A stretch of DNA of 64,000 bases from an uncultured Gammaproteobacteria bacterium (lineage in GTDB: Bacteria > Pseudomonadota > Gammaproteobacteria > CAISUE01), in assembly GCA_903888615.1 (NCBI GenBank), contig CAISUE010000046.1, forward strand, positions 1,016 through 65,015, in the 5' to 3' direction. Positions within the stretch are counted from its first letter, which is position 1, and every line of letters starts with the position of its first letter. Positions 1 through 3,000 of the stretch are shown here, piece by piece. Position numbers: made by a program.

Positions 1-3000
1 ATGGTGTAACACATTTTTATAATCATGTTCAGTGAGTAAAGCAGGCACAGTTATTTGAATATTGGTTAAGGAATTAAATAAGGCGTGTTCAGCTGCTAAT
101 TCAAATAAATCCGCTTGAATCGTTAATTCAACGGCGGTATCTAAACTTTCTTTTTTCAATAAATTATTGACCCGTTTGTGAGCGCTGGCTAAAGCGATCG
201 CGGCAGCTGAACTTTGAAAACTTAAGATTGCGTTTAAACGGGCGTAACTATCGTGTAAATCACCTTCTTTACCTGTTTTTAAATGACTCAATATGGCTTC
301 GATGGCTTTCATGAGTGACTCATGTGAATAATGCTTGAATTGTTGATGATCTAGCCAATAATAACGTAAACGATCAACGATAAAATCCATCACGCGATCG
401 GCCGTTTCTGACACGGTCAATTTATCTTGCCAACTCGCCACACTTTCTATCATCAACGGCCATAACGCAAGGGTCTGTGGTTGATTTAAAATAATGCGAA
501 TAACCCCCAAAGCTGCCCGTCTTAAAGCGAAGGGATCTTTATCACCGGTGGGAATTAAGCCGATACCAAAGATACCCGTTAAGCTAAGTAAGCGATCGGC
601 GAGCGCTAAACTGATTCCCAATGGACTCTTGGGTAAAGTGTCACCGGCAAATTTGGGTAAATATTGCTCGAATAAAGCTGTTGCTACATCGCTATTTATC
701 CCTTGTTGCCGCGCATAAGTACAGCCCATGATGCCTTGTAATTCGGGAAATTCATTGACCATTTGCGTACACAAATCACTCTTGGCCAGGGAGGCTGCTT
801 TCATCGCCAGTTGTTCATCGGCGTTCAGCCTTTGAGCGATAAAACCCGTCAAAGGTATGAGGGCTTCGACTTTGTCTTGCATCGAACCTAAATGGTGTTG
901 AAAGGTCATTTTCGCTAATATCGGTTGATAGTCAGCCAGTGGTGTTTTTAAATCCAGTTCATAGAAAAATTCCGCATCACTTAAGCGAGCATGCATCACC
1001 CGCGCATTACCTTGAATGACATCGTTAGGGTCAAGGCTATCAATATTACTGATGGTAATAAAAGCGGCGTGTAATTGTTTTTGTTGATTTTCGATGGCAA
1101 AACATTTTTGATGCTGTTGCATCGAAGCGATTAAAGCTTCCGATGGCAAATTTAAAAAACGTGGATCAAAAGGAATCGTTAATGCAACTGGCCATTCGAC
1201 CAAACCTACCACTTCGGTTAATAAATCGGGAGCTATCAGCACCTTTAAATGGGCGTTAAGGCGATGGGTTTCTGTTAATTGATGGTGGATCAACGCATGG
1301 CGTTTTTCAAAGCTGGCAATGACGTTAGCATCGTACAAATATTGTTCATAGTTTTCTCGATCAGCATTTTCAAAGCAAATCGCTTGCGGCGCCATGAAAC
1401 GGTGGCCATAGCTGATGCGATCAGCTTTGATGCCAAAACAAGTCACATCGATCATGTTTGGGCCGAACAAAGCTAAGACCCATTTAACAGGCCGAATGAA
1501 GCCGGTTTCACGATTGCCCCACCGCATGGGACGGGCAATGCTTAAAGCACTTAAGGCATTGTTTAATAGAGTGGGGAGTAAGCTTAAAGTGCTTTTACCG
1601 GGTATCAGTTGCGTATAAGCATAGTAGCCATCATTAACATTAAGGTCAGTGACCGTTACCCCACAGGATTTAGCAAAACCGAGCGCCGCAGGATGGCTGG
1701 TGCCTTCAGCGCTTACTTTAGGACCTTTGCGCATTAACCGTTGCTCGGGTTGCATCGTAGCGCAGTGGGCAATAAAAACACCCAGCCGACGTGGGGTTGC
1801 AAACCATGCACAGCGGTCTTTTTCGTAATGGAGTGCATGGTCAGTTAATAAAGCTTCGATTTTGGTGAGTAATTCTGCCCCCAAAGCCGCTAAGCCTTGA
1901 GCAGGTAATTCTTCACAGCCAATTTCAAATAATAAATCGTGTTGTTTAAGTTCAGTGTGCATAAAGTTTCTTTAAATGGATTGTTGCCAAAAGGCTTGAT
2001 TGAGGATCAACTTAAGCGTTTGTTTGGGTTGATTGGGATTGAATTCTTTTAAATTTAACGTTGGCGGTCCATCTTTGGGAACGGTAACTAGCCAGGTGGC
2101 TACGGTCCATTGACGTAAAATATTATCATTGGTATCGATAGCGCCGTCAGCGGTTAAGACACTTTGATCGGTACTGAAATTTTCAAATAAGCCAGCTGTA
2201 TAGGCTGTATGCGTCGCGAGTAAGTCATTGATGCGGTTATAACGCATGAAAGTGCTGGTGGATACAGGGTCATTGTAAGAAATTAAGGCGTCATTCACAT
2301 AATGATTGGTGTGATAGAGATACCCCGGTTGTTGGGCAAGGCGAATGGCATAATGACCGTTGGGTGCTATTTCAACCAGGATGATTTGGTTGTTATCGGC
2401 GATCATTAAATTTTGACCTGCACCATGACTGAATAGCGTTTCTTTATCCTTAATGACGTCGGCGACTGAACGGTAATGACGCAAAATGGTTTGCATGATA
2501 TCACTGCCCACTGCGGCACCATAGGCTACAGGGGTATGAATATCGTTATCGGCAACATTTAAACCGACTTGATTAATGCCGGCACTGATAAAGTGATAGG
2601 CGTTATCAGCGGGCGTATTTTTATACATCAAAGCTAAGTAGCGATAACCCGTCGGTGGTTGCACCAATTGTAAGCGTTGTATTTCCTCAGGTGGTGCATC
2701 GCGATTTTTAATGAACAGCAATTGATCCGATTGATTGACTGAACCAATGGCAGCCCAGAGCGTACACGCATGACTATTTTGTAGGCTTAAACTGAATAAG
2801 AGTAATGCTAACGTTATTTTTCTTATCATAAGCTCAATTCCATGGTGGTTGTCGCAGCATATTGTTCAGCAACCGCTTTGGCAAGTGCGCGCACCCGTAA
2901 AATATAGCGTTGTCGTTCCGTGACAGAAATAGCTTTGCGGGCATCTAATAAATTAAACGTATGCGAGACTTTCAAAACCATTTCATAAGCCGCCAATGCT

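Follow-up and report, generated by a model that had tools for sequence, protein, structure and literature searches.

A peptidase C45-family Cys-Ntn hydrolase gene inserted at the glyQ/glyS junction of an uncultured gammaproteobacterium

In N-terminal nucleophile (Ntn) hydrolases, catalysis needs a free α-amine on the nucleophilic residue, and the classical enzyme of peptidase family C45 is made as a proenzyme that cleaves itself before its Cys. The relatives in this superfamily that have been characterized act on small or non-peptide amides, including the aminoadipyl side chain in the case of AT, bile-acid conjugates and penicillin V. For glyQ and glyS, the genes for the two subunits of glycyl-tRNA synthetase (GlyRS), we found no paper on genes inserted in the pair. 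Gene numbering in Haemophilus influenzae Rd indicates that an otherwise contiguous pair can be split by unrelated genes, as HI0925 and HI0926 are numbered between glyS (HI0924) and glyQ (HI0927) (PMC4721953 Table 2; PMC3877243). Here, we analyze a 64,000-nucleotide (nt) stretch of DNA from an uncultured Gammaproteobacteria bacterium (assembly GCA_903888615.1, contig CAISUE010000046.1, positions 1,016 to 65,015 of the forward strand; hereafter the window), in which glyQ and glyS are separated by a gene for a 285-amino-acid (aa) C45-family protein, unlike the restriction-methylase-like and glutaredoxin-like annotations of the two H. influenzae genes.

The C45 type member is AT, or IAT (penDE of Penicillium chrysogenum; PDB 2X1C/2X1D/2X1E), a cytosolic or peroxisomal proenzyme of 357 aa that is self-cleaved at Gly102-Cys103 and keeps its α-chain. 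Its catalytic set consists of Cys103, Asn119, Asp121, Asn246 and Arg268 (PMC13044924). The bile-salt hydrolases (BSH) and penicillin V acylases (PVA) of family C59 are also Cys-Ntn amidases of the same fold, and what is removed to expose their Cys is a short N-terminal piece and not a long pro-domain; Gram-negative PVAs hydrolyze acyl-homoserine lactones (PMC5474475). The human disease protein TANGO2, of the 'NRDE' type, is a proposed Cys-Ntn hydrolase with Cys2, Asn25-Arg26-Asp27 and Asn157 as the corresponding residues (PMC13044924); in this cytosolic or mitochondrial protein, removal of Met exposes the Cys. The solved structure reported to be nearest to TANGO2 is CV2077 of Chromobacterium violaceum (PDB 3GVZ; UniProt Q7NWB3), which is unpublished and has no assigned function (PMC12359130). 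Our literature search found no paper on the function of CV2077 or on exported bacterial C45 enzymes.

We found that the gene order on the minus strand of the window is glyQ, the 285-aa open reading frame (ORF) and then glyS. Both synthetase genes score above their TIGR equivalog cutoffs (glyQ, α subunit, 2826..3764, TIGR00388 at 497.8 bits versus a cutoff of 361 and PF02091 at 3.3e-144; glyS, β subunit, 1..1962, TIGR00211 at 645 bits versus a cutoff of 300 and PF02092 at 5.2e-173) and lie on the same strand with glyQ first, as in a glyQS operon. The C45 gene (1972..2829; 285 codons plus TAA) begins inside an ATGA that joins its ATG to the TGA stop codon of glyQ (2826..2829), and its own stop codon (1972-1974) is followed by a 9-nt spacer, AGAAACTTT (1963..1971), without a Shine-Dalgarno (SD)-like match, and then by the glyS ATG (1960-1962). 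The glyQ and glyS genes are consequently 863 nt apart, neither overlapping nor abutting. The window contains the first 654 codons of glyS, which runs out of the window at position 1. The longest glyQ ORF starts at a TTG (3764) and carries 22 extra residues outside the glyQ profiles; the real start is likely the GTG at 3698, which has a GGAG 8 nt upstream and yields a canonical N-terminus. A first-pass annotation of this DNA had reported the 285-aa ORF between glyQ and glyS, the ATGA overlap, an NRD motif and a Cys following SHA, and each of these sequence statements was confirmed.

The 285-aa protein is a peptidase C45/AAT Cys-Ntn hydrolase of a short, CV2077-like subfamily. PF03417 (AAT, peptidase C45) matches residues 32-220 with 64.1 bits (gathering score 23.2; E = 1.9e-17), is the sole Pfam family at E<=1 and is present in all 29 homologues. 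When a profile of these 29 homologues was compared with the PDB, CV2077 (3GVZ) was matched at E = 4.6e-84 over 271 positions, AT (2x1c) at E = 0.006 and penicillin V acylases at E = 0.07. The NCBIfam C45_proenzyme model (NF040521) is matched only over profile positions 85-287 of 313, with 64.5 bits against a cutoff of 85; because this match begins at profile position 85, the catalytic β-chain is present and the pro/α segment is absent. The AlphaFold2 (AF2) model of the protein (mean pLDDT 92.2, pTM 0.89) adopts the αββα Ntn fold, in which the nucleophile opens a β-strand (residues 23-28, right after Cys22, by DSSP). A Foldseek search with this model returned 3gvz (E = 4.9e-21, TM 0.79/0.88, 32% identity) and further matches to a C69 dipeptidase, AT, bile-salt hydrolases, PVA and TANGO2, with a probability of 1.00 for 3gvz, 2x1c/d/e, C69 and BSH. 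The ORF is a real gene and not a chance reading frame, because PF03417 exceeds its gathering score, the mean pLDDT is 92 and the orthologues are conserved with ratios of nonsynonymous to synonymous substitution (dN/dS) of 0.10-0.22.

The family choice left open by the first-pass annotation (choloylglycine hydrolase, acid ceramidase or C45) is thereby narrowed to C45. The choloylglycine hydrolases (C59, PF02275) have no Pfam match at E<=1, and penicillin V acylase chains are reached by the family profile only at E = 0.07. Acid ceramidase and NAAA (C89) likewise have no Pfam match at E<=1, and they appear neither among the PDB sequence matches nor among the top 50 fold matches.

The similarity to CV2077 extends over residues 12-282 at 32% identity, and the two proteins share their layout: a hydrophobic N-terminus, a DA dipeptide directly before CTLWGA in CV2077, the motifs KNRDW and HTNHY, a length of about 290 aa and no pro-segment. 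Full-length similarity to CV2077, a signal peptide with a small residue directly before Cys-Thr and a length of about 280-300 aa characterize the subfamily. It is of modest size: a search of 1.84 billion representatives at E<=1e-30 gave at least 223 clusters (50% identity). The proteins of the window's clade carry an inserted stretch of their own (TADGAIDTND) ahead of the conserved ILR motif, and they lack the TGSTP loop found in many subfamily members. AT shares PF03417 and the Ntn fold (Foldseek E about 5e-9, TM 0.68) at only 13-14% identity; in contrast to AT, the window protein has no α-chain and carries a signal peptide before its Cys, and the substrate-binding residues Trp120, Phe122 and Phe123 of AT are replaced by Arg43, Ala45 and Pro46. 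The C59 enzymes are matched in fold at E about 1e-7, but with TM about 0.5, a root-mean-square deviation of 9-12 Å and no PF02275 match they constitute a separate family within the superfamily. TANGO2 has the same C...NRD...N pattern and its family members 8sv7 and 9bwa are matched at E about 9e-7, but identity is 12-13% and the window protein has no Pfam TANGO2 match.

Some members of the family depart from the usual length of about 290 aa (P0047, 547 aa; P0130, 456 aa; P0153, 872 aa; P0177, 509 aa), which suggests fusions of an exported C45 domain with other domains; P0177 matches the family in two stretches. On marine (TARA) contigs, tandem paralogues of the same C45 subfamily lie side by side, both with PF03417 (L012:2142-3113 and 3185-4147; also L013).

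We compared the conserved residues of the 29-homologue alignment with the catalytic set of AT. N42, D44, N175 and R196 are invariant, R43 is conserved in at least 90% of sequences and C22 occurs in every full-length sequence. Asn175, in the HTNHY motif (2305..2307), and Arg196 (2242..2244) align directly with Asn246, in the HTNH of 2x1c, and Arg268 of AT, while N42 and D44 of the NRD motif (2698..2706) correspond to Asn119 and Asp121 by motif and position rather than by direct alignment. Cys22 (2764..2766) is the counterpart of Cys103 and, from its conservation and its place in the model, the predicted N-terminal nucleophile of the mature protein. The protein thus has a catalytic set equivalent to that of AT (C22, N42, D44, N175 and R196), through which it would hydrolyze a non-peptide or small amide bond.

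Residues 1-21 (2767..2829) have the organization of a signal peptide, with an n-region (MIRK), a 12-residue hydrophobic core as h-region (ITLALLLFSLSL) and a c-region (QNSHA) that places Ser at -3 and Ala at -1 relative to Cys22; the AF2 model shows a low-confidence helix at residues 2-13. We surveyed 174 relatives, of which 140 fit the Cys...NxD nucleophile pattern and 134 of those have a pre-Cys segment long enough to be read. In these 134, the segment is 24 aa long at the median, with Ala at -1 in 108, a hydrophobic core in 129 and mostly Ala, Ser or Val at -3. Among the orthologues, positions -3 to -1 read S-N-A, S-S-A, S-E-A, A-D-A or G-Q-A, compared to S-H-A in the window. The pattern indicates that the protein is probably exported to the periplasm.

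Autoproteolytic processing, which the first-pass annotation had anticipated, is not expected because the protein has no pro-segment: only the 21-aa signal peptide precedes Cys22, and the absence of an autoproteolyzed α-chain is common to the whole short subfamily. Instead, signal peptidase I should expose Cys22 during export. Cleavage after SHA would make Cys22 residue 1 of the mature protein and provide it with the free α-amine.

We next consider where the gene occurs. Besides the window protein, there are only 10 proteins at identities of at least 53%, and in all eight orthologue lineages examined (53-100% identity) the gene lies between glyQ and glyS; these lineages are the window (with the identical contigs L002-L004), L001, L096, L014, L005/L006, L007, L097 and L098. 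The flanks, too, are shared among the longer contigs of the clade: one holds an arnC-like glycosyltransferase family 2 gene and an hflK/hflC-like pair, the other cation-efflux, rhomboid and Methyltransf_28 genes. A contig search with the 11-sequence alignment led to one GTDB representative genome, a metagenome-assembled genome labeled 'Gammaproteobacteria bacterium'. Six distant homologues (28-45% identity) were examined and all six lie in unrelated contexts; no shared functional neighborhood emerged among them, their neighbors including a lipase-like gene, OmpH, an ABC importer and a tandem paralogue.

To define the ancestral junction, we scanned metagenomes with the window GlyQ and obtained 80 loci; in 67 outgroup loci among them, the positions of both junction codons could be assigned. 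L014 is the only scanned locus with a GlyQ identity of at least 78% (85%), and it has the C45 gene; none of the scanned loci at GlyQ identities of 76% or lower has it. In the 67 outgroup loci, the distance between the glyQ stop and the glyS start has a median of -4 nt, mostly through overlaps of 4, 8, 11 or 1 nt, and no locus has a gene in between; in a few loci, this distance is 90-347 nt and holds palindromic repeat elements but no genes. The embedded C45 proteins are monophyletic in 50 of 50 neighbor-joining bootstrap replicates, with P0012 (45% identity), the closest homologue outside the glyQS-embedded clade, as their sister.

Therefore, the arrangement is a single, lineage-specific, derived insertion into an ancestrally overlapping glyQ/glyS junction, because all eight orthologues are embedded, all 67 outgroups have no gene between and the embedded clade is monophyletic. 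The first-pass annotation's description of the gene as inserted holds, and a search of related loci for the alternative, a widespread ancestral arrangement, did not find one. In the most likely course of events, a small clade of uncultured freshwater gammaproteobacteria would have acquired the gene once, in its ancestor and exactly at the glyQ/glyS junction, and would then have inherited it vertically with the operon under purifying selection.

Two observations concern mobility around these genes. A PD-(D/E)XK nuclease-family transposase-like gene (L094:779-1303; PF12784, E = 1.7e-44) begins 28 nt downstream of the P0012 gene, which hints at past gene movement. Palindromic, hairpin-forming repeats resembling repetitive extragenic palindromes (REP) or miniature inverted-repeat transposable elements (MITE) have invaded the junction upstream of glyS in several genomes (L001:5081-5320, L005:5859-5976, L033:4871-5093, L034:2782-3128, L065:4907-4996 and L089:2278-2433); in L001, the 240-nt spacer between the C45 gene and glyS contains three separate inverted repeats, one of them across the C45 stop codon.

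The C45 gene has evolved together with its neighbors. Its GC content (0.425) and its GC content at third codon positions (GC3, 0.416) equal those of glyQ and glyS, so that it is compositionally ameliorated, and its pairwise dN (0.14-0.41) tracks that of glyS (0.14-0.44) pair by pair. The dN/dS ratios are 0.10-0.22 for the C45 gene, 0.08-0.20 for glyS and 0.04-0.11 for glyQ, and are approximate as dS is saturated (>1); purifying selection on the C45 gene thus resembles that on glyS. The orthologues have all kept an ORF length of 283-289 aa as well as the signal peptide and the catalytic residues, and neither the plasmid collection (72,556) nor the phage collection (50,697 records) contained a C45 homologue. 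Judged from these comparisons of sequence, the C45 gene is old, vertically inherited and functional, and neither a pseudogene nor recent mobile cargo.

We then asked how the three genes may be expressed. Both window junctions, at -4 nt (glyQ/C45) and 9 nt (C45/glyS), fall within the spacing of about 10 nt expected for coupling. Across the clade, the glyQ-to-C45 gap ranges from -16 to +16 nt, and the C45-to-glyS gap is 2-11 nt in six of the eight lineages, 118 nt in L005 and 240 nt in L001, where the spacer is filled with hairpin repeats. Between 1500 and 4200 on the minus strand there is no terminator-like site, and promoter-like matches in the scan of 1500-4200 are at the level of shuffled sequence, that is, of chance. 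An Rfam search of the window returned one tRNA only and no leader RNA near glyQ.

The ribosome binding sites show a marked difference between the two starts. The calculated energy of pairing with the anti-SD sequence is, at the median, -5.15 kcal/mol for the clade's C45 starts and -4.3 kcal/mol for outgroup glyS starts, compared to -0.9 to -2.4 kcal/mol upstream of glyS in all eight clade lineages, which equals the random background (median -1.5 kcal/mol; Mann-Whitney p = 5e-5 for outgroup versus clade glyS). Transcription would start from the glyQS promoter, and the SD-like element at the 3′ end of glyQ would now serve the C45 gene. The glyS start would then be reached 2-11 nt past the C45 stop in most lineages, without an SD of its own, and therefore glyS is probably translated by ribosomes terminating at the C45 stop. 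The SD energies fit a glyS that is now begun either by re-initiating ribosomes or by SD-independent initiation.

The first-pass annotation had proposed expression from the glyQS transcript with translational coupling. The sequence of the window is consistent with both, and we infer that the C45 gene is co-transcribed and coupled; the tight spacing is not clade-wide, as the spacers of 118 and 240 nt show. Coupling cannot be obligatory, because L001 and L005 have these long spacers before an SD-less glyS. The SD-less glyS was also considered as a proof of obligatory coupling, and this argument is weakened by the long-spacer lineages and by the frequency of SD-less starts in the window (about 45%).

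Taken together, we regard it as probable that the gene encodes an exported, CV2077-like C45 amidase that is activated by signal peptidase I, derives from a single old insertion at the glyQS junction, is expressed from the operon and is unrelated to GlyRS. In our view the protein would act in the periplasm on a small N-acyl amide, produced constitutively through its operon position. The absence of a mechanistic tie to GlyRS appears most likely, with the operon simply giving constitutive, growth-linked expression. The first-pass annotation's more specific suggestion, a host-lipid or signal-degrading role, receives no specific support, as the family is functionally uncharacterized.

Several points weigh against this account. 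The C45_proenzyme score falls short of the NCBIfam cutoff (64.5 versus 85), export rests on a rule-based reading of the N-terminal sequence, and saturation of dS (>1) leaves the dN/dS ratios approximate. About 45% of the crudely assigned ORF starts in the window have no SD match, so an SD-less glyS is not unusual here, and in L001 and L005 an equally SD-less glyS follows spacers of 240 and 118 nt. Independence from GlyRS, finally, is a default position.

Other explanations of the same data differ in what they make of the Cys, of the reading frame and of its position. Bacterial lipoproteins are typified by a Cys right after a signal-like segment, and the Ala at -1 would fit a lipobox; after cleavage by signal peptidase II, Cys22 would then be lipid-modified and the protein anchored in the membrane, and it would not be an active Ntn hydrolase. 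We consider this very unlikely, as the -3 residues of the window protein and its orthologues are not the Leu, Val or Ile typical of lipoboxes, the catalytic set is conserved in full although N-acylation of the Cys would abolish the free α-amine on which Ntn catalysis depends, and Cys22 both aligns with the AT nucleophile and opens the first β-strand of the fold. The ORF could instead be kept mainly as a relay, because translation of glyS needs the ribosomes delivered through it, so that its disruption would be lethal by polarity. The essentiality of glyS, its missing SD in eight of eight lineages, the outgroup-like SD strength at the C45 start and the spacers of 2-11 nt in six of eight lineages all agree with such an addiction. 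If the ORF were a mere relay, however, there would be no conservation of Cys22, N42, D44, N175 and R196, of the signal peptide or of the full length (283-289 aa), and no dN/dS ratios of 0.10-0.22 over the whole protein; the long spacers of L001 and L005 precede the same SD-less glyS, and SD-less starts are common in the window. We consider a relay as the main reason for retention to be quite unlikely.

The position itself could reflect recent, horizontally shuffled cargo of an element that targets the glyQS junction, with independent gains in several genomes, in keeping with the PD-(D/E)XK transposase-family gene beside P0012 and the palindromic repeats that have invaded the same junction in some genomes. 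This is the least probable of the readings considered: the embedded clade is monophyletic in 50 of 50 bootstraps, its dN tracks that of glyS, its GC and GC3 are indistinguishable from those of the flanking genes, all long contigs keep the flanking genes in synteny, and neither flanking repeats, an integrase or a transposase in the window nor a homologue in the plasmid or phage collections was found. Alternatively, the position could be functional through glycine, with a periplasmic amidase that frees glycine (or another amine or amino acid) from N-acyl-glycine-type conjugates in co-regulation with glycyl-tRNA charging. In its favor, genes of one operon frequently share a function, this gene has stayed in the operon, and under purifying selection, among orthologues as little as 53% identical, and related Cys-Ntn hydrolases (BSH/CBAH) cleave glycine conjugates, with glycocholate structures among the fold matches. 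On the other hand, the genomic surroundings of all six examined family members from other lineages are unrelated, no further case of the family with glyQS is seen, there is no match to the CBAH profile, no transporter or glycine-metabolism gene is nearby, and substrate information exists for no family member. A glycine-releasing role is therefore a speculation by analogy alone, and we hold it to be improbable. Slightly less so, though still unlikely, is the broader proposition that the insertion either rewired GlyRS expression, with the ancestral glyS ribosome binding site driving the amidase and glyS depending on the amidase's translation and termination, or created an operon for glycine scavenging plus charging. 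If true, either version would be a new functional coupling of an aminoacyl-tRNA synthetase operon with a periplasmic Ntn hydrolase, and also the first physiological handle on the CV2077-like family.

With the exported, GlyRS-independent amidase as the preferred reading, the locus is a known family in an unusual, conserved operon position, a modest evolutionary curiosity and no new kind of system, and the finding alone leaves current understanding unchanged. It does provide a clean natural example of an unrelated, predicted exported enzyme whose gene was inserted exactly in the overlapping junction of an essential two-subunit synthetase operon and conserved for long, and so bears on how strict the 1:1 coupling of glyQ and glyS needs to be. 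The subfamily also represents a poorly known C45 design, where cleavage by signal peptidase would replace autoproteolysis in exposing the catalytic Cys. A constitutively expressed bacterial member could be an entry point to the substrate class of the CV2077-like enzymes, reported as the nearest solved neighbors of TANGO2.

Divergent from glyQ, the window carries at 3856-6797 on the plus strand an arnC-like undecaprenyl-phosphate glycosyltransferase gene (314 bits, below its equivalog cutoff) and an hflK/hflC-like Band_7 pair, both under their cutoffs. The synteny of these three genes with glyQ-C45-glyS holds in all long clade contigs (L005, L007, L096 and L097). Farther away, the TTG listed as the start of the thrS ORF (25418) falls within a tRNA-Val(GAC) gene (25388-25462, plus strand) that lies directly 5′ of thrS; therefore, the true thrS start lies further downstream. 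Five window ORFs have no Pfam family at E<=0.001 and are lineage-specific proteins: 9241-10554 (minus strand, 437 aa), 11430-12326 (plus, 298 aa), 16329-16856 (minus, 175 aa), 29221-30210 (plus, 329 aa) and 37523-39484 (plus, 653 aa). The 437-aa and 298-aa ORFs also have no NCBIfam family at E<=1e-5, and the five are scattered among the housekeeping genes lptABC, dnaB, sufBCDS, adk, bamD, thrS-infC, icd, aroE and pdxA.

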